The position numbers and the translations under genes were made by a program. The notes below the pieces were generated by a model. That model ran no database searches, was not told where the DNA came from, and saw only the letters and a program-made list of their open reading frames with translations. From a virus (Duplodnaviria; Caudoviricetes): a stretch of DNA of 64,000 nt. How positions within the stretch are numbered: the first letter of the stretch is position 1; each line of letters starts with the position of its first letter. The stretch spans positions 10,991 to 74,990 of the IMG/VR virus record IMGVR_UViG_3300033073_000492, one strand, 5' to 3'. Positions 8,583 through 44,357 of the stretch are shown here, piece by piece.

Positions 8583-8640
8583 AGAAATTCTCCTATACAT
8601 ATACAACGCCTTACAATAAGTTTACGTTGACACGGGCAAG

Positions 8641-8668
8641 AAAAAAGGCTACCGAAGTAGCCATTTTT
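8641..8668 (-). terminator. Intrinsic terminator ending the tmRNA transcript (likely bidirectional)
   Basis: GGCTAC-TTCG-GTAGCC followed by T6; T5 on the opposite side. Confidence 0.85.
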
Positions 8669-8669
8669 G

Positions 8670-8828
8670 AGTTTCTGTTGCGAGGTATGTCTTACCCCAG
8701 GAAGCGATTAAGCTGCCAATGCGTAACTTTCGTCATTTGCATTTATTTTGTTTTGCTTGATTTAGAGTCATCGCCTACTCTGCTGTCCACTCTGTTACTC
8801 TTTGCCCTGTCGAAACCATGACAAGCCC
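8670..8828 (-). ncRNA. ssrA: Two-piece tmRNA, coding piece (5' acceptor strand plus tag ORF ANDESYALAA*)
   Basis: Begins GGGCTTG-TCATGG-TTTCGAC; ATAAAT precedes the resume codon GCA; tag at 8708-8740, 88 nt from G1; 3' end approximate. Confidence 0.9.
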
Positions 8829-8829
8829 A

Positions 8830-9018
8830 TCATAAAGAAACTTCTTTGAATACTGGCACACTTTCAGATGCCATTTTAACAAATTCAACATTGGCCGGGA
8901 AACTATCTAAAGTTCCTTTGTGACGCATCATGCTTAACTCAAATGGTCCACGCTCTAACGCATACCAGAACATTTCAGTAGCACCTTTGTCAATTTGTTG
9001 TTGAAAATATTGATTCAT
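8830..9018 (-). CDS. 62-aa ORF inside the tmRNA intervening segment
   Basis: SD TAAGGA directly after the CCA end; TGA stop 1 nt before tmRNA G1. Confidence 0.7.
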   Translation of the reverse strand: MNQYFQQQIDKGATEMFWYALERGPFELSMMRHKGTLDSFPANVEFVKMASESVPVFKEVSL

Positions 9019-9030
9019 TAAACTTCCTTA

Positions 9031-9096
9031 TGGTGGACCTGGCGGGAGTCGAACCCGCGTCCAGAACACTTTTCTCTTTGCTTCATACAGCAATAA
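9031..9096 (-). ncRNA. ssrA: Two-piece tmRNA, acceptor piece (T arm, 3' acceptor strand, CCA)
   Basis: ...TCTGGAC-GCGGG-TTCGACT-CCCGC-CAGGTCC-ACCA; pairs with GGGCTTG giving the G3:U70 Ala determinant; 5' end approximate. Confidence 0.9.
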
Positions 9097-9101
9097 CCCA
9101 T

Positions 9102-9130
9102 ACTATAGCACAGTACCGAAATACTGTCAA
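9102..9130 (-). promoter_or_regulatory. Sigma70-type promoter of the permuted tmRNA, TTGACA-N17-TATAGT
   Basis: Near-consensus, directly upstream of the acceptor piece. Confidence 0.85.
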
Positions 9131-9145
9131 TAGTCACTTACCCAT

Positions 9146-9238
9146 TTATTCGCCATCTTCGTGCTTATCGTGCCAATCCATTAACCAATAGATTGACCAA
9201 GCACAAACTATAGCGATGAATAACCAAAAGTATATCAT
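9146..9238 (-). CDS. Small membrane protein (30 aa, MIYFWLFIAIVCAWSIYWLMDWHDKHEDGE)
   Basis: ATAAATA at 9245-9251, 6 nt upstream; single TM helix. Confidence 0.6.
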   Translation of the reverse strand: MIYFWLFIAIVCAWSIYWLMDWHDKHEDGE

Positions 9239-28685: not shown

Positions 28686-31600
28686 TCAATAATTTCCAGT
28701 ATTTAAGAACTTGCCCGGAGCGTTTGTACTCAACTGTAGTGGATCTCCGTATGGTAAGAAGTTAGTGCTGTTCCAGACACTTGTGTAGTAGTCTGGGTTC
28801 AACATTACTTTGTCATTTAGTCCGTGTACATAATCATACTGATTGTGGACTTTGACGATACCAGTCATGTTCACACCACGAGTCAATCCAGAGATTGTGT
28901 TCGTTGCGTGGTCAATGTTACGGAATCTAATCTTCTCCCCGTTAACTTCAATCATATGTCCAATTTGTAACGTGACAACTAGTTCATCATTCAATGACAC
29001 ACCTGTTGTGAATACAACGTGTGGTCTAGAATCGATATTTCTAATCACATATTGTTTTCTGTCTAGTGTAGTCAATGTTGACTTGTTGTACACAACAGCG
29101 CCGGACAAATCTTCAATCTTGTAAGTTAATGCTGCTACTAACTTATTGTCGTTTGAAGTCACGTACACATCCTCAACTACGTTAGAGACTATTTTTCTAC
29201 TATCGTTAACGTGCATTACATCTTGGTAAGTGTAGAACGGTTCTGTTAACCACACATCTTCCTTGATTCTGTACACTGAACCCATACCGTTCTTATCAAC
29301 AGAGAGATTGAATTCCATCATACCGGGCGTAGCTTCTGAAACCATGCTTGTAATGATGATGTTATCTGTTGGAGTAAGTTTGGTCATAATGTTCAACTTG
29401 TTAGCTCCATGGAAGCGTAAGTTACTTGGGTCAACACGCTGACCGTTGATTGTTACCCATGTTCTATCTCCCGCAGTATATTCAATTGCGTTATTGATAA
29501 CTTCAACAGTCTCAGAGTCTTTCCAGATATAACCACCGCTTACATAAGTAGATACTGCGCCACCTTCTACTGGTAGAGCGAACACTGGGTTACCACCGAA
29601 GATTTCAAAATCCCTATATAGTTCGATTGGGTAGTATGTTTTACCTTCCCAAACATATGAGTCCAGAACCTTAACGTAGTAAACGTCATTATTCAATTGT
29701 GTAGAGCCCTTCAACCCATCGATATGAACTTGGTCAGTATCGACTAATCCATGGTCTTCACTAGCAACAATCATTACTGGAGTAACTGCTCTGTCAACAA
29801 AGTGAATTGGAGCAACACGTAATCCATCAGTAGTGATAGTCTTTAAGTTTTGACGCTTAGTATCATAGAACGTAGTAATTGCAACTAAGTCACCTTCGGA
29901 CAAACTAGCAACAACCGTTAACAGATTGTTTTCTGTATCAATTGTGTAGTCTGCTGAGTTACAACGATACCCATTGATTTCAACGATTGCATTGTCTGCG
30001 TTGTCACCGCCGGTGTAGTTACTTAATGCAAATTCAGTAGAATCAACATATGCAAACACTTCTGTTTCGGGAATACTGTAGCTATACAATAACTCGTTAT
30101 ATTCAGGAACAACGGTGTCACTTAAAATTACTAATGAGAAGTAATCAACAGAATCATCATATAATGTTTCAAAGTTAATATATGTGTTACCGTCAATAAC
30201 GTGTAATGAGAAGTCAGTACCATATACCAACTTAGTACCATTGTGATAGATTAACGGATCAATGTTGATATTATTAACCGAGAACAATGCTACTGATGGT
30301 GTGAATGAGTATGGTAGAACAAACATGCTATTACCAAATTCATTTACACGCAATGGTGTAGTTTGTGAGTTAGTTCTAACAATTTGTCTGCCGTTGCCAA
30401 CTTCATACACTTCAACTAAGATTTGTGCGTCAGTCGGGTTATTGAATGTTATTGTCTTTGTAACCCAATTGATTGTGTATGTATAATTTTCATAGACACG
30501 TACATAACGTTCGTTTGAATCTAGTACAAATACGTTGATTTGTGCAGGATTCTCAACTATGTTATCAAATGAGATTTGATTGTATACGTCTAATACACCT
30601 CTAGTAGTTTGCATATTGAACCCGGTGTAACCATACTTGAAGTCTTGTGTGATTTCATCGTTGTCCCAGAATGTTCCAGGCTTAGTACGAACTCTCATAC
30701 TCAATGAATCATTGATGATACCGGCAACTAATTCTTCCGGACCATATCCAGAAACGAAATCGTCACCCTTAATATCATATGATGGGGCCTTAGTTGTAAT
30801 GTATGATACATTCTCCCATGTTGAACCCTGTGTGTTACTACGGATAATGATACCATGACTACCAGCAGCGATAAAGTATTCACCGTCAAATGTGATAGTA
30901 TTCAAATCGTGTGTTACGTTTGAAGTAGCAACATCCCAATAGATACCTGTAGTTGATGTCAACACTAGACCATTGTTACCTACTAATACGAATGTACCAT
31001 CAGCATAGTATGCGTCATTGATTGTATCTGTAGGAGATGCATCATTGACTGTACCAACCGTCCATAATGCTGGATCAAGCATGTCAGTAGTAGTCTTGTT
31101 ATGAGCATACATGATTGTTGCGTTTGAACCAGCGATAACAATCGTGTTTTGTGATGCAGTAATTGCATTCAACTGTTCGTTAGTACCACGAGGTGTTACT
31201 GGATTCCATGTATTTCCATCCATAGACAACAATACTCTACCAACTTGGTCAAGTTGTGGCATGGCTGTACCTGCGCCGCTAGTAACACTAATACCATATC
31301 CTACAGCGATGAACCCAGCGAAATAGTCAGAATCAATCGCTAATACACTCTTAAGTTCGTTAGGTAACGAGCTACCAAAGTTGTAGATTGATTCCCAAAC
31401 TAAACCATCACGACTTCTAATAATCTCAGTACCAACTGCATAGAACGTTTCATTAACATAAATGATATCGTTCATTGGCTTAGTTGGTGCTTTTAATCCT
31501 GTACTGTCGAATCCAGAATCACCGAAGATAACAACGTCATATGGAGTAAACTCACCAATTGTTTGCCAGTTAGTTAAGTCAAAACTCAACATCACAGGTG

Positions 31601-34600
31601 AAACAGACGTTGTTGTAGTAATCAAGTATGATGGTGCATTTGTTGTTGCAATGCCAGTCGCATTCAATACCTTGTTAGATAATTTGAATGTGTCCCAATT
31701 GATACCGTCAGTACTTGTCATTACAAGTGAGTGGTCTTTACTGTTTGCAGAAGCAACATAGTATGCACCATCATATGTGATACCAGTGATAGAGATATCT
31801 CTAGGATAGAATGGTTGATCCTGCAAGATGATATCTAATGGAAGTTCATCTGACGGAGCGAATACATTACCTCTATAGATATTGTATGGATATGTTACAC
31901 CTTGTAACACTTGTAGCCAGTTGCCAGGCATTGTGCTAGTAGGTTTATAGTAACTGATAACTCTATCGATAGCGTTCAGTGAACGGTCGTCACTTGAGAC
32001 AGGAGTCCACTTGTTTGGATCAAATATATAGTCACTGTTACTTTGGATACAACGATATACAACGTCTTGGTAAACAACTGTAGCAGTAACAACATACTTG
32101 TAACCCGCACTAGTTGTGAATGGTTCAGGAACGAAGATTGAGTCACCTGGCACAAAGTTAAACTTGTTAATTAAGACAGGAATCTTAAACGCTGAATCAG
32201 CATAGACTTTGATTTGGTCTTGTGACACTGGGTTTGCGTAATACATTGTAAACTCACCCTTAGCAACACCAGAAATATCATATATACTGATGCCTTTGAA
32301 TGCAGTAGTATACACAATATCCAAATAGAAATCATTAACGCCATCTCTGCCGCCCAACTCAGTACCAAATACTTTAATTCTATCTCCGTCACTATACTTG
32401 AAGCCAGCTTCTTCCATAATGATATAGTAACTATTAGAAATAGCTGTAGGATCGAAACGAGGTCTATAAATCTTAAACTTGGCACCGCCCAATGTGTTCA
32501 TCTTAGTTTCGTTCACACTTTGAACTGAACTAACTGTATAAACACGATATGTTACACCAGTATTAACAACTGTACCATCATCAGAAATGATATAAGTGTC
32601 AGGTAGAACACCTACACCATACACTCTATCACCGTTCTCTGGATAACTATTACCCGGGAACACTTCAACATACAATTGGTCATCTTCAATATATGCTTTA
32701 TCAAATGTCGTACCAGTATCATCATATTGGTACGCAGGGAAAGTCTTGTAGAAGTACATCTTCAAGCCTTTAATCTGCCCTGGTTGTAATCCGTTACTAT
32801 GACTGTAATCAACTGTTACAACCGCAGTACCATCAGTACCGTCTACACCAGTGATATCAACGACAGAACCTTGCCAACTAGTTTGTGCAATAGATGCTTC
32901 TGGATCATACAATCCAGTGTCAGATGATGCATCGTTACCTAACGAGTTGAATGGTGATGGCCAGAACATACCTGGTTGCCATTCTTGAACTGTACTACCA
33001 TAACTAGTACGGTCATACTTCATCACAGTTTTAATTTCACGTGTGAATGCATTCTTAATGATAGGGCTTGCTTTAGCTGCAATTTCTAACGCATATTCCA
33101 TTTCAGTAATTGGCTCAAGTGCTTCTGCAACTGCATCACCTTTATAATACAATTCAACACGATGGTCACCTGACTTAGCTGTTACATAACTTGTGTGAAG
33201 TGAAATCAACGAATTGATTCCATCATCAAACTTAGAAGCAACATTTACATAGTAGAATGATTCCGGTGTTAGGCCTATCAATTCTTGAGTCAACTCATCT
33301 GCATCTTCAGATAAAATAACGAAACGAACCAAATCACCTGTCACAAATTCTTGAGTAGGGATAACAATAGTATTGTCACCGAAGTTCATCATTGATTCAT
33401 TGAATCCAGCAGAGATAGATGGAGCGATATAGATTTCTGGAACCGCTACATATCCCTCACCTGGATCATTAACTGTTACACCAATCACTTTATCACCTGA
33501 CATGATAGCAGTTAATACTGCATCACGTTTTGGTGCAATGTATTTTGTAGTATCAATACGTGCTTCAATTTTAGGAGGGTCAATATAGTCACGTCCAGAG
33601 TCGGTGATAATTACCCCAGGAAGATCCATAGAAATCTTAACCCCAGGGAAGTGTACACTAACCGTAGTACCTTCTACTCCTCGGTTTAAGTTGTATAATC
33701 TACCCTTGACACGGTCTACCTTAGAGTAAGTAATCAATTCATTGTCAATCTTTATTGTACCTTGGACTGGTAATCCGTATGCGTTATCAACATAGATTTG
33801 ATTATCAGCAACAGTAACATACTTTGCAACTAATGCAACTTGTGCTTCCTTCTCACCAGTCAAAGTCATACCAATATGCTGAATCCAGTTATTATACTCT
33901 TGGTGATTCCAAATCGTATTAGATGAATTATATTGATTTGTTTTTTCTGCACCATAAGTCAATTGAGGTGATGCAAATGTCAACAACTCACTAGTGTACA
34001 ATGAAGGTAAGTCAAAGTCAGTTATACCACTGTTGTATGTTTCAGTACCTGCATATTGTAAGTAGAAATCTTTGATAACAGCATGGTATGGTTTGACTTC
34101 ATTGATATAACCGTACAACATATCTGTATCATCTTTCTGATACTTTGGAGTAGTAATCAAATCACGTACTTTGTTACCAACATCAATGAATGATGTTTTG
34201 TTCAACCATGGTAGATATTGATTTGAACCAATGTTTTCACTTTGGATATATTCAAAAACTAATATCAAACATTCATTGCGATACTTGAACATTTCACCAA
34301 CAAAAAGTTGCTCGTTGATAGCACGAATGATGTGACGAGTTTCTGCTGAAGGATATGTGTCAAAGTTATCAACGTCAAAGAAACTACTTCCTAAACCGAT
34401 GCCACTTGTGCCATAGTCCCATAGTTTATTACTAAATTGAATAGTACCGTTCTCTAAACCAACACGAGTCCATGTCGAATTAATGTAAGCATATGTTTCA
34501 TAACGACCACTAGAGTTTGATTGCACACCTGCTATCATACCTTCAACAGCATCAAGTGTATATAACTCTTGATACTTATTGACTTCAATGATTGGTCTAG

Positions 34601-37600
34601 TGCTATCACTATAGCCGTCAGCCCACCAGTTTACGTAATTCCAGAATGCAGTAGTGTCATAATTTGAACCAGAAGCCATTAAGAATGACGCTTCTTTGAA
34701 TTCATACACAGGGTATTGAATCAAGATTTCGTTAACACGTGACAAGTATACAAACAATGCTTGCAATCTGTTTGCAAACAAACTTTGATTTGGATTGTTT
34801 GAGATACCTACCTTCATCATCTTTGGTAAGTATGGGTTAGGTACTAATGCACCTCTTGCATCTAGACCGGCAAAGCTGTCTAACAACTTTAAGTACAATC
34901 CTGTAGGTTCGCTCAAGCGATTATATGCTACTGGGAATCCAGGCAAGAAATCGTCAGGTGATCCGTCACGAATCAATTCAAACTTAGAATGTGATGGGTT
35001 ATCTAAATCGCTACTACTGAATCCCACAAACAAACTAGAATCAAATGACAATGCATCTGATACGTTATGCAAACCAAACACACTTGATGAGTATGGTGCA
35101 AAGTAACTGATACCTGATTGCTGTGGATTTGAAATATAACTTTCAATTACTGAATCGCTTAGTGTTTTTCCAGATTCAACAAATACTGTGTTAGTATTTC
35201 TAACCCAGAAGTAGTATTTTGAAACTAGTGTGTCAGAAGAATCAACGCCAACTGCGGTTGCATAGCTTTCTAAATCGTAAGGCACGCCAGGACCAGCATA
35301 GAATGATGGTGTAACAAAACTCTCTACCCAAGTATAAACTGTTACAGCACTACCTGGGAATACTTTACCCCAATACTTGCTATTGTACACAACATCATTT
35401 TGATGATAGTTTACAAATCGAGTATTTGAAGGATCAAACCAAATTGATCCAACTTGTTCTTTACCCCAAACAATGTTACCAACATAAACTGCCGGGTTGT
35501 TGTACCCTGCTGGGTCAGCATAACTGATGAAGTCAATGTTCTCACGTACTGCACCTAGTAACTTACCTTGAATTGGATCAATATAGTCCAATGGTGCAAT
35601 GATTTCATTTGTATGTGTGTTGTACAATTGAACTTTTTGAACCTTGTTGATATCAACAATTGGGTTAGATTTTCTAAATGTTTGCCAGTTAGAAACACCA
35701 CTGTTATTCTCAAACAATGTAACTCTGCCACCAACTTCTGATGGTTTAAACTTAGGTGAACCTACAATAATCTTATTATGTCTAAAGAACAATGATAGAC
35801 CAAACTGAGGTTCGACGCCATAGTCTTCTGAGTCGTCAACTAGTATCTGTGAGTACATGAATGTACCTGCATTAGTCAACGATTCGTTATATTCTGCGAT
35901 ATAGTCATACAAGTAAACTGCACCAGCGTTTCTATTGCTATCAATGAATTGTGTAAAGTTGTTATCAAATACAGTATCATTGTGATTCAATTCATCGTCA
36001 GTAAAGTCGATAGTTGTGCCTACATAGCGTGAGCCTTTTGGTGCGCTAATCAACACTGAACCTTGTTCACTGAATTTAACCGCTTGACCAAAATTAGAAC
36101 CTTTGTCGCCGTGAGGATTGATAAACGTATCGACTTTAGTATATTCGCTGATACCCAAGTAATACAATACGCTACCATTGAATACGCTCAATGTTAATTT
36201 GTCGTTAGCTGGGCCTAAAGTAGAATCGATTAAACGAATCTGAAGTTTGTCTGAGTTTCTATCTTCTTCAAATCCTGCCATTGGTACAGCGATAGCTTCT
36301 ACGTTATCGATGCTTGTGGCATTGATTGCATCAGCAATATCTTGTGCAGTGCCTGCTGGGATACTTACACGGAATCCATTGATTAAGATATCAACTGCTT
36401 GATACAAGTACATCTGAACTGATTGTAAGCCGTTGATTACACCGTATTTTTTACCCTCGTTAATGAAACGTGATGCTGTACCTTCTGCATTTGATGCAGG
36501 GTCAACATACCGTGGCGCACCAATGATTAAGTCAGAACCAAATACATTACAGTCTAAGCCCATACTGAATCGTGCACCAGGTACGATACCGCTTGGGTCA
36601 TCATATACGTTTAAGATTTGTTTCTCAACAACACGGGCAGTATCTACCGTAATCTTATCGCCGGCATATACTGATATACCAATCAAGATTGTTGTTTCGC
36701 CTACTGTAGGATCATCTTCATTAGGGAACGAAAAGATGCGTACATAATCATCAGGTAATCTTTCACCGTTCACTGAAATCACAGCAGACCCAGGAGCATA
36801 CCCATAGATGTTTGATGTTGGCCAAGGCAACTTAAATGCTGCGATTGAGTACGGCGGCGAATCAAGTTGAACTTCAAAGTTTTCAACTAAACGTTCAAAT
36901 ACAAACGCCATACCCGTATCTTGTTGTTCATAGCTTGCATCAAAGTAAGGTGCACCGATGAAAATCATCTTACCAGTGTAATCAGTAGCAAGGCTTTGTG
37001 CGAAACCGTCGGATGGGTCAGTACCAGCAGTAAACGCACCTACATATGTATAATTGATTGAAGAAGTATATACTTCTGTCAATGCTTCAATATCTAATAA
37101 GATAGGGGAATCGACAAAGAAGATTGTTGAGTTTGTTCCACTGATATATTTACTTGTTACTATTGCGTATGTTGGTGAATAAGGATCGTTAGCAAATGTC
37201 ACATCTTCACCTACAGGTAAATCAACAACTTTGTTACCAAATACAGTGAACGATGTTGATCCTGATAAGATTTTATCTTTAACTTGAATTGCAGTAGAGT
37301 CAATAAACTTGTTGACGTTCTTTTGGAACGCTACAACGCCACCATATGATGATGCACTAGCATACAAGTAATTTGTATCACCGGATGCAGTCATCACTTC
37401 ACCGATGCCGCCACCAGTGACCCATAAGTATTGTTGATATACTGCACGTTGAATCTTGTCAGTAGAAACTAGTTTGTATATCCAAATGAAACTGTTAGTA
37501 CCTAGTGGGTCAGGTTGTGATATGAACAACATATCACCTTGAACTACAATATTAGTACCAAATGTGTTAGGAGTTGTTTTGCTAAACAATGGGGCCAATG

Positions 37601-40600
37601 TTTCTTGCGGAGAGGTAGCACCAGTGTCAGAATTATATGTAACTCTATGTACACGTTGTTTTCCCGCATCAGCAATAAAATATCCTAACTTAGGATGGTA
37701 TGCTACTGAGTTACCAAATGTAGTTGTAGACCCGTATGAAGGAATATTAACACCACTGTAGTTGATAGACTTTCTATAAACTTCCCAGTTACCATCTGCA
37801 CCGGTATCAACCCACACAGTGTTCTTTCTAAACTCATTGTCTAACAATGGTAGATTTTTAATGTCACTTGGTGTACTGATGCGATGTGACAATAAACCAA
37901 TCGGCATACCAAAGCCACTGATATTTGTAGTAGATGGGTCAAGATTTAATACAATGATGATAGTAGTCAATGAAGGTACGTTGATAACTCTGTAGAATCC
38001 ATCAACTCTGCTATCAAAATGTGCAATACCAATCATATCATCAACAGAAACACCATGTACATTTGAGTATTGAACTGTTACAGTACCATCAAGGTTATTG
38101 ATTACGTTGATAACATGTGTCGCCGATGAACCACTTACCGATGTAATAGGAGTATATACTCCCCAATCATTTTGGTAATCAGCGATCCAAACATAATCAT
38201 TCTTATACAAATCATCAATTGCAACATTGTTTAAACCGGCAAAGTTGTAGGCTGCAAAACGAACATCATCAAACATGATGTATCCAGCAGACTTTAACAC
38301 TTCATCATCTGGGTTAGTTGTTGGAATAGTTGCTAGTATGTCAGGAGTATTAACTACTCTTCCATAGTTAGCAAGTGAATGTATTAATACTTCTTGTTGA
38401 ACGCCAGGAGTATCAACACCGTCAGACAACCCAACTACAACTGGGTTGCCGTTGAGTAAATTCTTATCTAATGCAATTTCAACAAAGTTCTGATTAGATA
38501 CTCCGCCAAATTCACCGCTCTTGATAGCCCAGTTTTCATAGATAGTATAGTCTACATCACCTTGAACCAATGATGCACCTTGTAATGCACCCATTGCACC
38601 AGTTGTACCCTTTGATTTAATGATGTTCTTGAAAACATTGAACTGTGACAAGTCTGGAATGTTTGCTTGTGACAAGTAATCTCTAGGACGATAACCAACA
38701 AGAGAGAATCCTAACAAATCAGCATCATTGTTTAAGTTACTACGATTGCTATCATAGTACAATGTACTTTCATACGCACGATTGCTTGCGTTAGGTAACA
38801 TTCCCTTTGGAATCTTTTCGTAATCTGTTTTGATCCAGTCTTGTTTACTAAAATCAATACCTGGCTTAATCATACTGTTGGCGACCCAGTAGCTATTCTT
38901 GTTATAAACAATTTCACCCTTAGTGTACTTTTGATTAGGTACCCAAGCAGTTATATTATCTTGGTTAAGAATAAATCCACCGGTATCAAAAGAACCATCC
39001 CAATCAGATGTTCTTAATCCTCGAACAAACATACGTTGTTGTCGTAATCCAGTTGTTAAGTTGAAGATAGTATCATTAAACACTGTAGTGTTATCGAAGA
39101 TAACTACATGTTCCATGTTGCTTAAGTTCGCAACAAAGAAACTAAGAGTATCTTCCTCATTCATCGGAATGAGTCTAAATTCATTTCTATTTCTATAGAC
39201 ACCCAAATCTTTCATTTGGATTGGAATTAAGTTTTGATCCAATGCATAGTTTTCATAATTTTTTGCAAGTGATTGCACTACTGCATTTTTTCTATTAACT
39301 TTTAATTGCTTAGCCGCTGGGTTAACGTTGATTGTGCTACCAACTTCCCAACCACTTTGAATCCAGTATAACAATTCAGCAACCATTTGCTTCCAGTCAA
39401 CTAGTAAGTTGTTCTCAACTAAGTCGAAGACCATACCACTATTTGTCAAGAATCTACCATAGTTGATTAAGAATTCACACAATGCTTGCGGTGTTGAAAA
39501 CTCGTGTCCATACGGATAATAAGTTATTGCGTCGGTGTATTCTTTGGTAATTTTTACAGAAATGTTGTTGACTGTTACTGTCTCGTAGTTACCATTAAAC
39601 TTAGGTGTGAATGCCTTGAAGTATGCCTTATTTTGGCTATTACCGAAGACATTGAATCCATTCTTAGATTTTTGAACAATGATACTTGAATAAGTGATAG
39701 TATCAAATGGTTGGTTGTTGTATAGTAGTACACTATAACTTTCTTCCGGAATCAACAGTGATGAATTAGAACTATTTGGACTTGATTTCTCAACATAGAA
39801 CTTCAACATTGATTTGTCAGTAAATCCACCAACACGATATGTCAATGAAACTTTAATATTTTTAATGAAGTCAGCTATGATAGCACTTCCATTTACTCCA
39901 AACTGTTGTAGGTAGTCAACTACCCAAGCGGCGTAACCATGTTGTGCGGTGCTATCAATTTCTGCACGTGTGCCACCACGACCTTGACCATAGATTGTCA
40001 AATTGCTAGGAGCGGCACGTAATCTATTAAAAATTAAGAATTGGTCAAACTCAGAGTTATATCGATATGCGTCTAAGTCAATACCTTGTGTAAAGAATGC
40101 TGGTGGTTTCGTTAATGCATATAGACGCATTAAATCAAACGGCCAAGTAGAACTCTTTTGATAACTGAACTCAGCAGGGCTCATGTCACCTACTTTCCAA
40201 TCACGGTTGATTGAACCGATGTCTGAGAAACCTACAATACTTTTCATAGGTGATACTAAATTACCATATGTATCCACTGGCAACACATCTTTCAATCCAG
40301 GGCGTTGGAAATATTCTTCAATGTAAGGGTTACCGTCATTCCAGTCTAGCCCCTTTTCTAAATCACCCCATAACAATGTATTATCACTTGTGTAGGGGCC
40401 TGTGCCATAGCGTTTGTCCCACCATGATGGCTTATTAGTATATCCAATCATTTCCCATGGAGACAAGTGAGGACGTGTAGTATCATACAAGTCCATGTAA
40501 ATGCCTCTCCAATTGCCGTGATGGAATGGTTGATTGGTTACTTTGTCACGACACTGACCATAGTTCCATGTAAATTCATTAGAGGCATTAAAATACTGAC

Positions 40601-43600
40601 TCTTAAACTCTAAACGATTTTGACCCACCCAGTTTAAAAACTGTGTGCTATACATTGATAAAATTTCTTCTTCATTGAAATCATTCGTTCTGAAGAAACC
40701 AGGCATAATACTTTCACGCACGATTGGTAAGTCGGCTACAACTTTAATGTTGTTGTAAACACGTTGTTCGAATTCTAAGAGAATTCTATCTCGCATATCA
40801 GTTAATATACCATTGTCATATTCACCAAATAATTTAGTGTGCGATCCATCGTGCCCTACAATAAAGTAAGTAGGTGTTAAGAATGTGTCATCCAAAACAA
40901 TCTCAGGAATTGTCTTTGGATACAATCCCATCTTCGTTGGAGTGTTAGGAACATAACTACCAAATGTTTGGTTGTATTCTTTGATGATAACCTTATCACC
41001 TGGTACAAAATTATAATTGATAGAAATTTTAGGTTCAGTTTCACTTACTATGTAATCAACATCACGAGTAAGTTGTGCTGTTACTAAGTTACCGTCAATG
41101 TTTCTAGTCACATAAATCAACACAGAATAATAGTTCGCAACAGAGAAAGAATAGATTCTACTTAGAGGGTATTCTACTGATTTAGTAAATGTGTTAAACG
41201 TATATCGTGATACTGTTTTAGGAGCCTTAGATGGAATCATATCGCTCCAATAGAATGGAGTAGATTCATTGCGGACATTAGCAATTTGATTCAAAATGTC
41301 ATCTAAGATATCGTCAATAGTATGAATAGGTGTGTAGTCACCGTTGGTAAGGGAGTTAACAATCAGTGACTTGAATTTAATATACTCAGTTGCATTATAT
41401 GATAAGGCATTGAAAATGTTATAATCTTGGTTACGCAAGAACAACGCTGGCATAGCCATTGAACCTGAGTTTTGAATAATACGAGTACCATAGTTCACTA
41501 CATTTCCTAAATCACGGTAGTTATTAGGGCCAAACGCACTTCCTTCTAGTGTGGAAATGTTGTTACAAATGCTCTTGAAGTGACCTCTGATATCCCCGGA
41601 ACTGATTGTAGTTACTTGATAGTTGAACGGATTACTATCAATATTCATCGGGATGTCATAATAACCAAACTTACTTACTTGGTCACTATAAATCATAACT
41701 TCAACACGTGAAGTATCCAACACCGTAGGGATATTAATTACAGTTGAGTTGTCGGTAATTGTAGCGGAATAAAGATCCGCACCAATGCGCTCGTTATCTA
41801 AATAGACAACTAATGTAGGCCAAGGTGTTGATGCAGAATCTTTTGGTGCAATGTCACATGTGAAGGTAGTGATATTAGCGTCAACCCCATCAAACTTGAA
41901 AATTTGATATTGAAAACTAGGTCCGGCTGCTGTAACCCAACCAAGCTGGCGTTCAAAGTTTGTTCTGTCTGTATACTTATAAACGTATCCATAGTTCACT
42001 GGCATGTTAGTAGAAACACTATCTACTACGAAGTTAAAACTTTGTGTGTTTAATGTTGCTTCAAAAAGAATATCACCGATATTGTTCACTGAACTATATG
42101 CTAACGGAACACCCAAGATAGGATCATCAGGTCCAGTGCCTACTGCAAATTGGAACAATGTACAACCAACAAAGTCACTACCACTATAATAATCTTGGTC
42201 ACCAAAACTGATACCATTAGAATCATACACATCAAACAACGGTGGTTGATTGTCGTACAGTTTTTGTTGGCTAAGATTCCAATTAGCGCCATCAAAGTGA
42301 TATGATTTACCTTGACTTACTTGACCTTGAATACAGATAACTTGGTCACCAGCTAACACTTCACCGTCAACAGCGGATGATAATGTAATAGTACTTGGTT
42401 TAGTTGAATCTACAATACTGTTACTTACTACATAAATTTTGTTTCTAACTTGTGGGTTGTTATCATTAGCAAATACAATCCTAGCACCATCAAACAATGT
42501 AACAGTTGAGCCATCAGCATTATATGAATGCTTTCCGGACACATCAGTAAATGCATCAGTAGTAGTAAAGTCAATAAAGTCAATTGGTGCTTTATATGAA
42601 GTACCGTGATTGAACAATCCTAAATTAGGATAGAATTCGATAATAGGACGTTTAGCACGTGTGTCATTGTTATTCAACGCAGCTTGTGTTATAGGGCTGT
42701 TTGGAGTATGAGCTAATGTAGTGGCTAGTACGTCATAATGAAACCATCTGTTACTACGACTCCATGCGTTGCGGTCATTGCTATTACGATTAATAGTAAT
42801 ATGGTCTTTGACTGCAGGGACTGATGTTGAACTACCGTATGCTTCTAAGTCAAATGGTTTAGTTTCATAAGGTGTACTATATGATTGGGTAAATCCTTCC
42901 GGCACGATTAATTCGTCTACTGGAATGAGGTTGATACTTGTACCAACACCCTCAACATAATAACTTTGACCTTTGTATTCATCTGGATAGATATATCCCA
43001 CAAATGTGACCTTTAGTCCATTGGTGAACTTTACGCCGTTGGGGCTAGTGTATGTTACCTGACCGATGATATCTCGCTGAACGTCAATAACATCATCAGA
43101 CAGACGGTCAACAATTCTAATCTTACCAAATCTACTTGGGTTAACGGTATCTTGATAATACAGTGTATCTAATGGAGCACTGATGAATGGAATCATTATC
43201 AAGTCACCGTAACTTGGTTTCGCAAAGTTACGATGTAAATATTTTACACCATATGTTGCTGTAATTTTAGTGTCATTAGGAATCTTATCGTATTCAGATA
43301 ACACAACTACTGTATCTAGGCCAGTGCCTACATAGTTGATTTGATAGATAGTTTCTGAAACATTTGAATAGAAACCTTCTTCAAACATTTCTGGATTTTC
43401 ACTTCCAAGATTTTCAACAGCAAACGGAACGCTATTATATAACTCACCGATGAAACCTTTATCATCAGATGTTGCTCCGTAGAAAATTAAAGTTCTTCCC
43501 TCTAAAGAATTGATACCATCAATGTTCTTCAATTGTGACAAAGGCACACCATGAATCTCATTGAACTTTTTGGTAGTTACTAAATCGACTTCAACATCTC

Positions 43601-44357
43601 CGGGAAATAACAATGATTGTTGGTCGGTTGCGTTAGGTACGTTGAATGTCATTGTACCATGTGTTGAACCGTTATTAGTCACTCCTAAAATATCACGAAC
43701 ACTTATATTAGTGTGGTTAGGATCAACACCGTCAATGCCGGGATAGCCTTGAATAAAGAATTGTGAATCTTGGTCTGTAGTAAATGTATACTTACCACCT
43801 CTCATCAAAGTGATAGTTGGGTTACCTGTGTTTAGTTTAACTGTATCAGCTTTGATGTCGAATGCATTACCGTTAACAGAAACAGTATAATCCACGTTAA
43901 AGAATGCGGCGGCGTTAGTGATGGTAACTGCTTCAGCCCCGTTAGGCAACCAATAATATTGACCGTAGTTAACCACTTTATCCAAGTCAACAAAGCTATC
44001 CCATGAATAGAACTGTTGCTTGAACAACCTGTTATGGTCTCCGGTAATTGCCCCTTCATTAGCAAGAGTATCAATCATGCCCTTGTATGTTAATAAATCT
44101 GTGACTGCGTTAGTTACTGAGTCACGAAAAACAACTGCCGGTTCTAGTTGATAATCTTCTCTTTCTTTAGACGATTCAGTGACGTATTGGTCTGTGGTTT
44201 TTACACCATAGCCAAACTTACTACCAATATAACCCTGAATCTTTTCAGTTCTAGGTTGTTGAACTAACTGGTCAAGTGTTGCACTTAAAAATTGTTCGTT
44301 AGTTTTGGTTCTAAAAATCTCTGGTAGAAAATCTATCGTTCTAACTTGTGTTACCAT
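28686..44357 (-). CDS. Giant 5223-aa virion protein, probably a baseplate wedge/fibre
   Basis: Single 15.7-kb ORF next to the gp6-like gene; FG-GAP-like and Asp-box repeats. Confidence 0.75.
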   Translation of the reverse strand: MVTQVRTIDFLPEIFRTKTNEQFLSATLDQLVQQPRTEKIQGYIGSKFGYGVKTTDQYVTESSKEREDYQLEPAVVFRDSVTNAVTDLLTYKGMIDTLANEGAITGDHNRLFKQQFYSWDSFVDLDKVVNYGQYYWLPNGAEAVTITNAAAFFNVDYTVSVNGNAFDIKADTVKLNTGNPTITLMRGGKYTFTTDQDSQFFIQGYPGIDGVDPNHTNISVRDILGVTNNGSTHGTMTFNVPNATDQQSLLFPGDVEVDLVTTKKFNEIHGVPLSQLKNIDGINSLEGRTLIFYGATSDDKGFIGELYNSVPFAVENLGSENPEMFEEGFYSNVSETIYQINYVGTGLDTVVVLSEYDKIPNDTKITATYGVKYLHRNFAKPSYGDLIMIPFISAPLDTLYYQDTVNPSRFGKIRIVDRLSDDVIDVQRDIIGQVTYTSPNGVKFTNGLKVTFVGYIYPDEYKGQSYYVEGVGTSINLIPVDELIVPEGFTQSYSTPYETKPFDLEAYGSSTSVPAVKDHITINRNSNDRNAWSRSNRWFHYDVLATTLAHTPNSPITQAALNNNDTRAKRPIIEFYPNLGLFNHGTSYKAPIDFIDFTTTDAFTDVSGKHSYNADGSTVTLFDGARIVFANDNNPQVRNKIYVVSNSIVDSTKPSTITLSSAVDGEVLAGDQVICIQGQVSQGKSYHFDGANWNLSQQKLYDNQPPLFDVYDSNGISFGDQDYYSGSDFVGCTLFQFAVGTGPDDPILGVPLAYSSVNNIGDILFEATLNTQSFNFVVDSVSTNMPVNYGYVYKYTDRTNFERQLGWVTAAGPSFQYQIFKFDGVDANITTFTCDIAPKDSASTPWPTLVVYLDNERIGADLYSATITDNSTVINIPTVLDTSRVEVMIYSDQVSKFGYYDIPMNIDSNPFNYQVTTISSGDIRGHFKSICNNISTLEGSAFGPNNYRDLGNVVNYGTRIIQNSGSMAMPALFLRNQDYNIFNALSYNATEYIKFKSLIVNSLTNGDYTPIHTIDDILDDILNQIANVRNESTPFYWSDMIPSKAPKTVSRYTFNTFTKSVEYPLSRIYSFSVANYYSVLIYVTRNIDGNLVTAQLTRDVDYIVSETEPKISINYNFVPGDKVIIKEYNQTFGSYVPNTPTKMGLYPKTIPEIVLDDTFLTPTYFIVGHDGSHTKLFGEYDNGILTDMRDRILLEFEQRVYNNIKVVADLPIVRESIMPGFFRTNDFNEEEILSMYSTQFLNWVGQNRLEFKSQYFNASNEFTWNYGQCRDKVTNQPFHHGNWRGIYMDLYDTTRPHLSPWEMIGYTNKPSWWDKRYGTGPYTSDNTLLWGDLEKGLDWNDGNPYIEEYFQRPGLKDVLPVDTYGNLVSPMKSIVGFSDIGSINRDWKVGDMSPAEFSYQKSSTWPFDLMRLYALTKPPAFFTQGIDLDAYRYNSEFDQFLIFNRLRAAPSNLTIYGQGRGGTRAEIDSTAQHGYAAWVVDYLQQFGVNGSAIIADFIKNIKVSLTYRVGGFTDKSMLKFYVEKSSPNSSNSSLLIPEESYSVLLYNNQPFDTITYSSIIVQKSKNGFNVFGNSQNKAYFKAFTPKFNGNYETVTVNNISVKITKEYTDAITYYPYGHEFSTPQALCEFLINYGRFLTNSGMVFDLVENNLLVDWKQMVAELLYWIQSGWEVGSTINVNPAAKQLKVNRKNAVVQSLAKNYENYALDQNLIPIQMKDLGVYRNRNEFRLIPMNEEDTLSFFVANLSNMEHVVIFDNTTVFNDTIFNLTTGLRQQRMFVRGLRTSDWDGSFDTGGFILNQDNITAWVPNQKYTKGEIVYNKNSYWVANSMIKPGIDFSKQDWIKTDYEKIPKGMLPNASNRAYESTLYYDSNRSNLNNDADLLGFSLVGYRPRDYLSQANIPDLSQFNVFKNIIKSKGTTGAMGALQGASLVQGDVDYTIYENWAIKSGEFGGVSNQNFVEIALDKNLLNGNPVVVGLSDGVDTPGVQQEVLIHSLANYGRVVNTPDILATIPTTNPDDEVLKSAGYIMFDDVRFAAYNFAGLNNVAIDDLYKNDYVWIADYQNDWGVYTPITSVSGSSATHVINVINNLDGTVTVQYSNVHGVSVDDMIGIAHFDSRVDGFYRVINVPSLTTIIIVLNLDPSTTNISGFGMPIGLLSHRISTPSDIKNLPLLDNEFRKNTVWVDTGADGNWEVYRKSINYSGVNIPSYGSTTTFGNSVAYHPKLGYFIADAGKQRVHRVTYNSDTGATSPQETLAPLFSKTTPNTFGTNIVVQGDMLFISQPDPLGTNSFIWIYKLVSTDKIQRAVYQQYLWVTGGGIGEVMTASGDTNYLYASASSYGGVVAFQKNVNKFIDSTAIQVKDKILSGSTSFTVFGNKVVDLPVGEDVTFANDPYSPTYAIVTSKYISGTNSTIFFVDSPILLDIEALTEVYTSSINYTYVGAFTAGTDPSDGFAQSLATDYTGKMIFIGAPYFDASYEQQDTGMAFVFERLVENFEVQLDSPPYSIAAFKLPWPTSNIYGYAPGSAVISVNGERLPDDYVRIFSFPNEDDPTVGETTILIGISVYAGDKITVDTARVVEKQILNVYDDPSGIVPGARFSMGLDCNVFGSDLIIGAPRYVDPASNAEGTASRFINEGKKYGVINGLQSVQMYLYQAVDILINGFRVSIPAGTAQDIADAINATSIDNVEAIAVPMAGFEEDRNSDKLQIRLIDSTLGPANDKLTLSVFNGSVLYYLGISEYTKVDTFINPHGDKGSNFGQAVKFSEQGSVLISAPKGSRYVGTTIDFTDDELNHNDTVFDNNFTQFIDSNRNAGAVYLYDYIAEYNESLTNAGTFMYSQILVDDSEDYGVEPQFGLSLFFRHNKIIVGSPKFKPSEVGGRVTLFENNSGVSNWQTFRKSNPIVDINKVQKVQLYNTHTNEIIAPLDYIDPIQGKLLGAVRENIDFISYADPAGYNNPAVYVGNIVWGKEQVGSIWFDPSNTRFVNYHQNDVVYNSKYWGKVFPGSAVTVYTWVESFVTPSFYAGPGVPYDLESYATAVGVDSSDTLVSKYYFWVRNTNTVFVESGKTLSDSVIESYISNPQQSGISYFAPYSSSVFGLHNVSDALSFDSSLFVGFSSSDLDNPSHSKFELIRDGSPDDFLPGFPVAYNRLSEPTGLYLKLLDSFAGLDARGALVPNPYLPKMMKVGISNNPNQSLFANRLQALFVYLSRVNEILIQYPVYEFKEASFLMASGSNYDTTAFWNYVNWWADGYSDSTRPIIEVNKYQELYTLDAVEGMIAGVQSNSSGRYETYAYINSTWTRVGLENGTIQFSNKLWDYGTSGIGLGSSFFDVDNFDTYPSAETRHIIRAINEQLFVGEMFKYRNECLILVFEYIQSENIGSNQYLPWLNKTSFIDVGNKVRDLITTPKYQKDDTDMLYGYINEVKPYHAVIKDFYLQYAGTETYNSGITDFDLPSLYTSELLTFASPQLTYGAEKTNQYNSSNTIWNHQEYNNWIQHIGMTLTGEKEAQVALVAKYVTVADNQIYVDNAYGLPVQGTIKIDNELITYSKVDRVKGRLYNLNRGVEGTTVSVHFPGVKISMDLPGVIITDSGRDYIDPPKIEARIDTTKYIAPKRDAVLTAIMSGDKVIGVTVNDPGEGYVAVPEIYIAPSISAGFNESMMNFGDNTIVIPTQEFVTGDLVRFVILSEDADELTQELIGLTPESFYYVNVASKFDDGINSLISLHTSYVTAKSGDHRVELYYKGDAVAEALEPITEMEYALEIAAKASPIIKNAFTREIKTVMKYDRTSYGSTVQEWQPGMFWPSPFNSLGNDASSDTGLYDPEASIAQTSWQGSVVDITGVDGTDGTAVVTVDYSHSNGLQPGQIKGLKMYFYKTFPAYQYDDTGTTFDKAYIEDDQLYVEVFPGNSYPENGDRVYGVGVLPDTYIISDDGTVVNTGVTYRVYTVSSVQSVNETKMNTLGGAKFKIYRPRFDPTAISNSYYIIMEEAGFKYSDGDRIKVFGTELGGRDGVNDFYLDIVYTTAFKGISIYDISGVAKGEFTMYYANPVSQDQIKVYADSAFKIPVLINKFNFVPGDSIFVPEPFTTSAGYKYVVTATVVYQDVVYRCIQSNSDYIFDPNKWTPVSSDDRSLNAIDRVISYYKPTSTMPGNWLQVLQGVTYPYNIYRGNVFAPSDELPLDIILQDQPFYPRDISITGITYDGAYYVASANSKDHSLVMTSTDGINWDTFKLSNKVLNATGIATTNAPSYLITTTTSVSPVMLSFDLTNWQTIGEFTPYDVVIFGDSGFDSTGLKAPTKPMNDIIYVNETFYAVGTEIIRSRDGLVWESIYNFGSSLPNELKSVLAIDSDYFAGFIAVGYGISVTSGAGTAMPQLDQVGRVLLSMDGNTWNPVTPRGTNEQLNAITASQNTIVIAGSNATIMYAHNKTTTDMLDPALWTVGTVNDASPTDTINDAYYADGTFVLVGNNGLVLTSTTGIYWDVATSNVTHDLNTITFDGEYFIAAGSHGIIIRSNTQGSTWENVSYITTKAPSYDIKGDDFVSGYGPEELVAGIINDSLSMRVRTKPGTFWDNDEITQDFKYGYTGFNMQTTRGVLDVYNQISFDNIVENPAQINVFVLDSNERYVRVYENYTYTINWVTKTITFNNPTDAQILVEVYEVGNGRQIVRTNSQTTPLRVNEFGNSMFVLPYSFTPSVALFSVNNINIDPLIYHNGTKLVYGTDFSLHVIDGNTYINFETLYDDSVDYFSLVILSDTVVPEYNELLYSYSIPETEVFAYVDSTEFALSNYTGGDNADNAIVEINGYRCNSADYTIDTENNLLTVVASLSEGDLVAITTFYDTKRQNLKTITTDGLRVAPIHFVDRAVTPVMIVASEDHGLVDTDQVHIDGLKGSTQLNNDVYYVKVLDSYVWEGKTYYPIELYRDFEIFGGNPVFALPVEGGAVSTYVSGGYIWKDSETVEVINNAIEYTAGDRTWVTINGQRVDPSNLRFHGANKLNIMTKLTPTDNIIITSMVSEATPGMMEFNLSVDKNGMGSVYRIKEDVWLTEPFYTYQDVMHVNDSRKIVSNVVEDVYVTSNDNKLVAALTYKIEDLSGAVVYNKSTLTTLDRKQYVIRNIDSRPHVVFTTGVSLNDELVVTLQIGHMIEVNGEKIRFRNIDHATNTISGLTRGVNMTGIVKVHNQYDYVHGLNDKVMLNPDYYTSVWNSTNFLPYGDPLQLSTNAPGKFLNTGNY

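Follow-up and report, generated by a model that had tools for sequence, protein, structure and literature searches.

The minus strand of a 64,000-nucleotide stretch of viral DNA (the window, taken from the IMG/VR virus record IMGVR_UViG_3300033073_000492) carries between positions 9130 and 8640 a gene for a permuted, two-piece transfer-messenger RNA (tmRNA), in which the intervening segment (IVS, or spacer) between the two tmRNA halves is almost filled by an open reading frame (ORF) for a protein of 62 amino acids. All coordinates refer to the whole 64-kb stretch, and the features of the unit are compiled in Table 1. The unit begins with a sigma-70-type promoter, whose predicted transcription start approximately coincides with the first base of the acceptor piece. 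The latter holds the 5' strand of a linking helix, the T-arm, the 3' strand of the acceptor stem (CAGGUCC), the discriminator A and the CCA end at 9033-9031. It is followed by the IVS and then by the coding piece, which comprises the GGGCUUG acceptor strand, the GGUUUCGAC motif, the linking helices, a pseudoknot region, the tag frame and an intrinsic terminator. Hence, the order is that of a permuted gene, with the CCA-ending 3' half upstream of the half starting with G1, on one strand and with one promoter and one terminator. A first-pass annotation of the sequence had already described the promoter, the CCA-ending half, the spacer, the G1 half, the tag, the terminator, the helices linking the halves and the G3:U70 pair, and all of these elements were found where it had placed them.

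The tmRNA finder ARAGORN reports a permuted tmRNA (tmRNA*) at 8617-9123 with the tag ANDESYALAA, and the Rfam model RF04321 (tmRNA_permuted) matches with 129 bits (cut-off 47, E 6.6e-25) over the full model length (positions 1-213), whereby the alignment treats the spacer as a single long insert in the acceptor loop. Both halves thus pass the gene finder as well as the covariance model for permuted tmRNAs. By direct reading, the acceptor stem GGGCUUG/CAGGUCC carries the alanine identity pair G3:U70, and the structure line of cmscan includes the helices UUGCUGU/ACAGCAG and UGUUCU/AGGGCA in addition to the T-arm. The tag ANDESYALAA represents an intact ClpXP-type tag, the frame of which opens with an alanine resume codon and which has the hydrophobic terminus ..LAA. 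Families of group I introns gave no match at the gathering or E-value threshold, and the T-loop is uninterrupted. As far as can be read from its sequence, the tmRNA shows every feature of a working permuted tmRNA. The earlier proposal that the whole arrangement is transcribed as one unit is supported by the distance of only 12 nucleotides (nt) between CCA and the start codon of the ORF, and no promoter-like site ahead of the ORF other than TTGACA-17-TATAGT was seen in the unit.

The ATG of the ORF is preceded by UAAGGA, with the Shine-Dalgarno (SD) sequence AAGGA located 6 nt before it, and the TGA stop ends 1 nt before G1. When the mononucleotides of the spacer were shuffled 2000 times, an ORF of such length appeared in 0.15% of the cases (P 0.0015), while the longest antisense ORF has 25 codons. 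In a large protein collection, the 62-amino-acid family comprises 13 homologous protein clusters with 58-92% identity, the alignment of which shows 27 invariant columns including the motif MRHKGTLD.FP. The ratio of nonsynonymous to synonymous substitution rates (dN/dS), calculated according to Nei and Gojobori (NG86), is 0.24 between the two embedded copies that were compared at the DNA level, 0.09 against the free-standing homolog L127 (80% identical, dS 1.07) and 0.08-0.24 in all informative pairs, as had been expected of a conserved ORF. The 62-codon ORF is a real gene under purifying selection. AlphaFold2, run with an alignment of 14 sequences, predicts a compact four-strand domain (predicted local distance difference test, pLDDT, 92.6; predicted template modelling score, pTM, 0.76), according to which the product is a small beta-rich protein. 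The predicted fold has a single structural match, an uncharacterised protein of an uncultured phage in BFVD (template modelling score, TM, 0.82). Protein L B1 domains, the top fold hits in the PDB (TM ~0.4), were not considered credible, and nothing was found there at E <=0.001. A search of the ESM Atlas with the protein gave unnamed clusters only, near noise level.

Table 1. Features of the permuted tmRNA unit and RNA-library contigs matching it, in coordinates of the 64-kb window
Feature	Position	Strand	Evidence
Sigma-70-type promoter TTGACA-N17-TATAGT, TG before the -10 box	9102..9130	-	11 of 12 consensus matches
Acceptor (3' tRNA-like) piece	9031..9095	-	RF04321 model positions 1-63, direct reading
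Intervening segment (IVS, spacer), 202 nt, not in the mature two-piece tmRNA	8829..9030	-	
IVS stem, 5' strand, UAAGGAAGUUU, contains the SD AAGGA	9020..9030	-	covariation, minimum free energy folds
Gene of the 62-amino-acid protein, ATG 9018-9016, TGA 8832-8830	8830..9018	-	homologs, dN/dS, predicted fold
IVS stem, 3' strand, AAGUUUCUUUA, equals the last codons ..E V S L	8833..8843	-	covariation, minimum free energy folds
Unpaired UGAU after the stem, stop codon plus U(-1) before the RNase P site	8829..8832	-	
Coding (5') piece, G1 at 8828	8640..8828	-	ARAGORN, cmscan, direct reading
Tag reading frame, resume codon GCA, ANDESYALAA, stop UAA	8708..8740	-	ARAGORN, direct reading
Intrinsic terminator hairpin GGCUAC-UUCG-GUAGCC, then U6	8647..8662	-	
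Module of 313 bp shared with locus L121, 92.7% identity	8784..9096	-	sequence comparison
Metatranscriptome contig X17, 269 nt	8802-9070		
Metatranscriptome contig X15, 240 nt	8814-9053		
Metatranscriptome contig X16, adapters at both ends	8896-9066		

The closest homologs of the 62-amino-acid protein (L121, L122 and L123, 90% identity) are again encoded between two tmRNA halves. The homologs at L124-L130 (58-80% identity) are free-standing genes without a tmRNA nearby; members such as P0004, P0006, P0009, P0011 and P0013 belong to densely packed series of small genes, in which the stop of one gene overlaps the start of the next, and some free-standing homologs adjoin clamp-loader-like or sugar-nucleotide genes. 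The presence of free-standing as well as embedded homologs indicates an ordinary family of small phage genes, one branch of which lies inside a tmRNA gene. Relatives from cultured phages were not detected when 50,697 phage records were searched with the ORF by tblastn and with the 5' piece plus junction by blastn, and blastn of the whole locus gave only short matches to the conserved tRNA-like parts of other phage tmRNAs.

To compare the unit with related loci, relatives were picked by one exact 32-nt T-arm/acceptor sequence, which is present in at least 120 IMG/VR contigs. Among the matches listed, to which the following counts refer, 101 of the 104 tmRNA genes called by ARAGORN (L001-L120 and 10 other loci) are permuted, with CCA-to-G1 spacers of 4-273 nt as measured by script. 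A sense ORF covers 81-95% of the spacer in 20 of the 24 non-redundant spacers of at least 110 nt; the shuffle P is <=0.023 for each of these 20 ORFs, and those on the antisense strand are far shorter. Altogether, 37 of the 89 non-redundant spacers contain a slot-filling sense ORF, whose start lies 6-15 nt downstream of CCA and whose end lies 1 or 9-13 nt upstream of G1. The related contigs keep the order of tmRNA halves and spacer, and different phages have different genes in the slot, as anticipated for contents that are exchanged like a cassette. The cargoes are mutually unrelated and include a thioredoxin, predicted membrane peptides and several proteins without assigned function, and this variety argues for a general expression site rather than an accessory of trans-translation. 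The first-pass annotation had stated that permuted tmRNA genes have short non-coding spacers. This applies to the bacterial genes but does not hold for the phage lineage, given the share of coding spacers among the matches listed. The same 32-mer, searched in 185,579 species genomes, led to no permuted tmRNA but to 10 one-piece tmRNAs and one contig without a tmRNA call, all from metagenome-assembled genomes that are labelled mostly as Saprospiraceae or other Bacteroidota. Since the bacterial scan gave no permuted spacers to compare, the statement on non-coding bacterial spacers relies on the literature (PMC11915505).

Two of the other cargoes deserve mention. At L049 (210-464, minus strand) and L120, a thioredoxin of 84 amino acids (CGPC motif, PF00085, 75 bits) fills a 268-nt spacer, and its last three codons and the stop come from the conserved stem described below. 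At the IMG/VR loci L002, L011, L016, L018, L084 and L113, hereafter the L002 type, the 101-nt spacer contains a conserved cysteine-rich ORF beginning with MKYTALCPSCF, which starts 11 nt after CCA, crosses G1 and ends 27 nt inside the mature 5' piece, i.e. coding sequence and mature RNA sequence overlap.

The slot is framed by a stem. Across the lineage, the 10-12 nt directly downstream of CCA are complementary to an equally long stretch near the other end of the spacer, which stops 4 nt short of G1 and leaves the unpaired U[G/A]AU facing ACCA at the junctions. In 78 distinct junction pairs, in-register pairing amounts to 92%, compared with 46-59% when the register is slid and 60 +/- 2% when the partners are shuffled, and most of the 12 stem positions show four to six pair types. 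The covariation of the IVS stem across the phage tmRNA lineage is real. In the window, the stem stacks on the acceptor stem and is present in the minimum free energy folds of the precursor as well as of the spacer alone. That the SD and the last codons of the ORF are the two strands of this conserved, covarying stem had been overlooked before. Unrelated cargoes end in ..VSL or ..SL because the 3' strand of the stem is read as their final codons and the conserved unpaired UGA as their stop; elsewhere a cargo terminates at a UAA directly before this strand, in the same frame. Moreover, coding spacers have weaker stems (mean -6.3 kcal/mol) than non-coding spacers (mean -10.1 kcal/mol; Mann-Whitney P = 4e-8), and SD-like motifs are found in the stems of 28 of the 37 coding but only 13 of the 52 non-coding spacers. 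Weaker stems and SD motifs together let slot and cargo appear co-adapted for translation. Unrelated cargoes have the last 13 nt in common, and the free-standing homologs of the 62-amino-acid protein end in GAAGTTTCAGAATGA, the embedded copy in GAAGTTTCTTTATGA. To judge from these ends, the terminal microhomology could mark the site of capture, or this family could have founded the shared junction.

The comparison with locus L121 points to the movement of such a module between genomes. The shared 313 bp extend from the acceptor piece through the ORF-bearing IVS to nt 45 of the 5' piece; no other similarity, on the DNA or the translated level, was found between 6.2 kb of L121 and the complete contig of 75 kb that includes the window. 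The two loci differ in the promoter region, the pseudoknot, the tag region and the neighbouring genes; the tag at L121 reads AANDARFLMAVNA, and its neighbours encode homologs of the T4-like gp33 and gp59. The mRNA-like part of the window tmRNA is 87-90% identical to that of loci with other spacers and 75% identical to that of L121. These cross-matching identities indicate that cargo and backbone have different histories, and the pattern points to the transfer of a module of tRNA-like halves plus ORF between tmRNA backbones and between genomes that are unrelated in other respects. The near-invariant tRNA-like halves might serve as homology arms, by which cassettes would spread through recombination between co-infecting phages.

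Contigs from RNA libraries also match the locus. Metatranscriptome contigs of three studies (X17, X15 and X16, Table 1) span the ORF contiguously with the acceptor piece, and two of the three cross the CCA junction by more than 31 nt. They are weakly indicative of, and compatible with, an RNA that holds both the acceptor piece and the spacer. Joints from 8830 to 9031 (X4) and from 8843 to 9024 (X15), which might be taken for excision or for a spacer-less form, were not used, because these joints with sides of 30 nt most likely stem from tmRNAs of other phages with other spacers.

Taken together, the locus is most likely a single transcription unit consisting of a strong host-type promoter, a permuted two-piece tmRNA with a genuine gene between CCA and G1, and a terminator. 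Its working could be envisaged as follows. Early in infection, the host RNA polymerase would make one precursor of the whole unit. As in the two-piece tmRNAs of bacteria, for which this processing model has been established (PMC11915505, PMC9004378), RNase P would cut 5' of G1, with a U as base -1, and 3' trimming would stop at CCA. The spacer would thereby be freed as an RNA of approximately 200 nt, the ends of which would be clamped by the IVS stem, and the 62-amino-acid protein could be made from the precursor, from the freed spacer or from both. By analogy with the bacterial RNAs we infer that the spacer would be excised and the excised piece translated. The SD is located in the stem, and a ribosome terminating on the ORF would sit on the GGGCUUG strand of the acceptor stem, so that translation of a molecule should preclude its folding or processing, and vice versa.

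Several points weigh against this reading. The model of betaproteobacterial permuted tmRNAs, RF01850, gives 67.2 bits (E 3.6e-20), below its cut-off of 84. Its alignment covers 8639-8925 and does not reach the acceptor piece on the far side of the 202-nt insert, which the model probably cannot bridge and which would explain the shortfall; the tmRNA of the window resembles the betaproteobacterial type, yet it is not filed under RF01850. A gene for SmpB was not found on the fragment, which is 22% complete, so that the function of the tmRNA would depend on the SmpB of the host. Sequestration of the SD in the stem could make translation inefficient. The RNA-library contigs, being assemblies, show neither ends nor strand and could include carry-over of DNA. 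The sample of 89 loci derives from one exact 32-mer and from listed matches, hence the proportion of approximately 40% coding spacers is not a census. Finally, searches of Pfam and PHROG assign the 62-amino-acid protein to no family.

In another explanation, the spacer would simply be a harmless landing site for a selfish or neutral hitch-hiker, i.e. a gene spread by recombination through its flanks, uncoupled from the tmRNA and giving a small early 'moron' product. Such a scenario would agree with the functionally unrelated, diverse cargoes, with the occurrence of the 62-amino-acid family as an ordinary operon gene elsewhere and with the movement of the module between unrelated genomes, but it does not account for the strict placement of the cargoes relative to CCA and G1 in one frame, nor for the systematic weakening of the stems of coding spacers, which carry the SD. 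Both features suggest that slot and cargo are co-adapted for expression. This explanation otherwise overlaps with the single coupled unit and differs solely in denying the coupling; we regard it as rather unlikely.

The coupled unit can also be extended to a mutual regulation of nested gene and tmRNA on each transcript, in which the freed spacer would act as a near-non-stop message that times the early protein. This extension appears doubtful and is put forward with a good deal of reserve. The folded IVS and acceptor stems would hide the SD and allow cleavage by RNase P, whereas a translating ribosome would melt both stems and delay maturation. On the freed spacer, the stop codon would lie 1 nt from the 3' end made by RNase P, so that the mRNA would extend only about 4 nt past the P site of the terminating ribosome. 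The activity of tmRNA-SmpB falls only beyond ~9 nt of mRNA (PMC8012679), hence the freed spacer would be within the range of tmRNA-SmpB and thus be a near-non-stop message. Its product might be released by release factor 2 (RF2) or be tagged for degradation by its own co-made tmRNA. If true, the unit would have a built-in timer, by which the early protein is shut off as the phage tmRNA accumulates.

It is highly improbable that the tmRNA is a relic, which was disabled by the insertion and now serves as an mRNA with structured ends, or a decoy inhibiting host trans-translation. A precedent for the latter is the tag-less tmRNA-like RNA of mycobacteriophage DS6A, which inhibits the host tmRNA (PMC11915505), and the missing SmpB gene as well as the RF01850 score under the cut-off could be interpreted in this direction; however, the features of the tRNA-like domain, the resume codon, the tag ANDESYALAA and its stop are all conserved, the acceptor pairing is kept with U5:G in the window vs C5:G in L121, and the tmRNAs of short-spacer relatives are equally intact. 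Furthermore, the spacer of a permuted gene is removed regardless, hence an insertion there need not disable the tmRNA. That the ORF is open by mere chance, in a long spacer that does not code for protein, as the lack of a Pfam or PHROG family and of homologs among cultured phage genomes might suggest, is refuted by the low dN/dS values with saturated dS, the free-standing homologs, the confident fold and the shuffle statistics, and its probability is close to nil.

Permuted tmRNA genes as such are well documented in Alphaproteobacteria, some Betaproteobacteria and Cyanobacteria (Keiler et al. 2000; Sharkady & Williams 2004, as cited in PMC9004378 and PMC11915505). They share with the unit in the window the order acceptor piece, IVS, coding piece, the G3:U70 pair, the T-arm, the linking helices and the tag frame, and their precursor is cut by tRNA-processing enzymes. 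The 2025 paper on the tmRNA database regards the IVS as discarded and absent from the mature RNA; it flags as unusual one IVS with a tRNA-Ala gene and another with a repetitive element, and nowhere uses the word ORF (PMC11915505). In contrast, the IVS of the window amounts to an entire gene, the SD and stop of which are integrated into the stem. Two-piece tmRNAs have also been found in phages such as the OM43 phage Melnitz and pelagimyophages, and 53 unique ones were counted by Buchholz et al.; the add-on reported for the Melnitz tmRNA is a glutamine riboswitch (PMC9004378). Like the window tmRNA, these aquatic phage tmRNAs are permuted and lie behind an early promoter in large, aquatic, myophage-like genomes. 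The tmRNAs of Stenotrophomonas phage Marzo and Synechococcus phage BUCT-ZZ01 pass RF01850 (94.6 and 94.5 bits) and hence are of the betaproteobacterial type with short spacers. By reading, the two spacer ends of BUCT-ZZ01 are complementary as in the window lineage, with a UAAU left unpaired ahead of G1. The spacers of Marzo (~57 nt) and BUCT-ZZ01 (~110 nt) contain no slot-filling ORF, and the papers and records on the two-piece tmRNAs of Melnitz, Marzo and BUCT-ZZ01 describe no spacer gene.

Some observations on the annotation of these two phages can be added. The permuted tmRNA of Marzo (L131, MZ326868.1 70994-71368) is located in a tRNA cluster and overlaps annotated genes for tRNA-Leu and tRNA-Thr at its ends; ARAGORN also proposes an overlapping one-piece tmRNA there, which is probably spurious. 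In BUCT-ZZ01 (ON615601.1), a coding sequence for a 64-amino-acid 'hypothetical protein' is annotated over the acceptor piece (L132, 521-715) of a permuted tmRNA that is itself not annotated (RF04321 112 bits, 630-926). This coding sequence is probably a mis-annotation.

Protein genes inside tmRNA genes are known from another context, because some tmRNA genes hold group I introns, some of them with genes for LAGLIDADG homing endonucleases (PMC11915505). These endonuclease genes are the nearest published analogue of the gene in the window (PMC11915505), since in both cases a protein gene resides in a segment that is removed from the tmRNA precursor. However, the intron-containing form uses a self-splicing intron in the T-loop and its exons are ligated, whereas the window unit has no intron match, its pieces stay separate and its cargo is no nuclease. 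Here, the segment would be removed by the end-processing of a permuted gene and not by splicing. Messages delimited by RNase P and 3'-end processing sites are found in the thrU-tyrU-glyT-thrT-tufB operon of E. coli, in the tRNA region of phage T4 and in the 'tRNA punctuation' of mitochondria. In such tRNA-mRNA transcripts the mRNA is located beside or between independent tRNAs, while in the window it lies inside the acceptor-stem loop of one RNA and both of its ends would be made by the maturation of a single tmRNA. A parallel on the side of mobility are the promoter-early stem-loop (PeSL) cassettes, which Arbiol and colleagues reportedly described in 2010 and which are said to shuffle small early genes among T4-type phages at short conserved repeats. 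The arms of the PeSL cassettes are promoter/terminator repeats, whereas those of the window module would be the two halves of the tRNA-like domain of a functional RNA. In the full-text literature that was searched, no description of a protein gene in the intervening segment of a permuted tmRNA was found.

The window comprises 64 kb of a 74,990-bp record, for which CheckV estimates a completeness of 22%. Matches of structural proteins of the record lead to jumbo phages (PA5oct-like phages, Atu_ph07 and Phosso), and the tmRNA locus (8600-9150, 551 bp) has partial matches in freshwater, river and lake metagenomes of several studies; the tmRNA unit belongs to a fragment of a large uncultured freshwater phage. 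On the minus strand, one ORF of 5,223 codons extends over 28686-44357, followed by ORFs of 1,125, 1,094 and 843 codons on the same strand. The giant genes from 28686 onward look like the structural region of a jumbo phage. Closer to the tmRNA, the region 6187-6815 of the minus strand contains a rubrerythrin-like gene (PF02915, E 5e-16), after which an ORF for 42 amino acids with two CxxC motifs (CIVCGH..CPECG, recognised by eye) starts in overlap with the upstream stop codon. The two may form a phage-borne oxidative-stress pair. In addition, a tRNA-like gene with a CUA anticodon, i.e. of the amber suppressor type, and an encoded CCA lies at 6863-6939 on the minus strand (Rfam tRNA, 43 bits). 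ARAGORN finds it only with a lowered threshold, because its anticodon stem is mismatched. A recoding of TAG as the reason for this tRNA was rejected, because reading TAG as sense hardly lengthens the open frames; TAG is the stop codon of 3 of the 56 long frames in the genome of the window.

The arrangement has consequences for annotation as well as for phage biology. Many small genes have been missed in phage annotations because tmRNA callers mask the region, and in practice gene callers should keep ORFs that lie inside permuted tmRNA features. It also raises the question whether release factors or trans-translation deal with an mRNA that ends one base past its stop codon, and it offers a natural system for the competition of translation and RNA maturation on one molecule. 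So far, the IVS of permuted tmRNAs has been treated as a throw-away segment. In these phages it is a compact expression slot for exchangeable cargo. Its SD and stop are encoded within the stem by which the processing sites are presented, and its flanks show enough conservation to act as recombination arms. Hence, the finding adds a way of nesting a protein gene in a stable-RNA gene without splicing.

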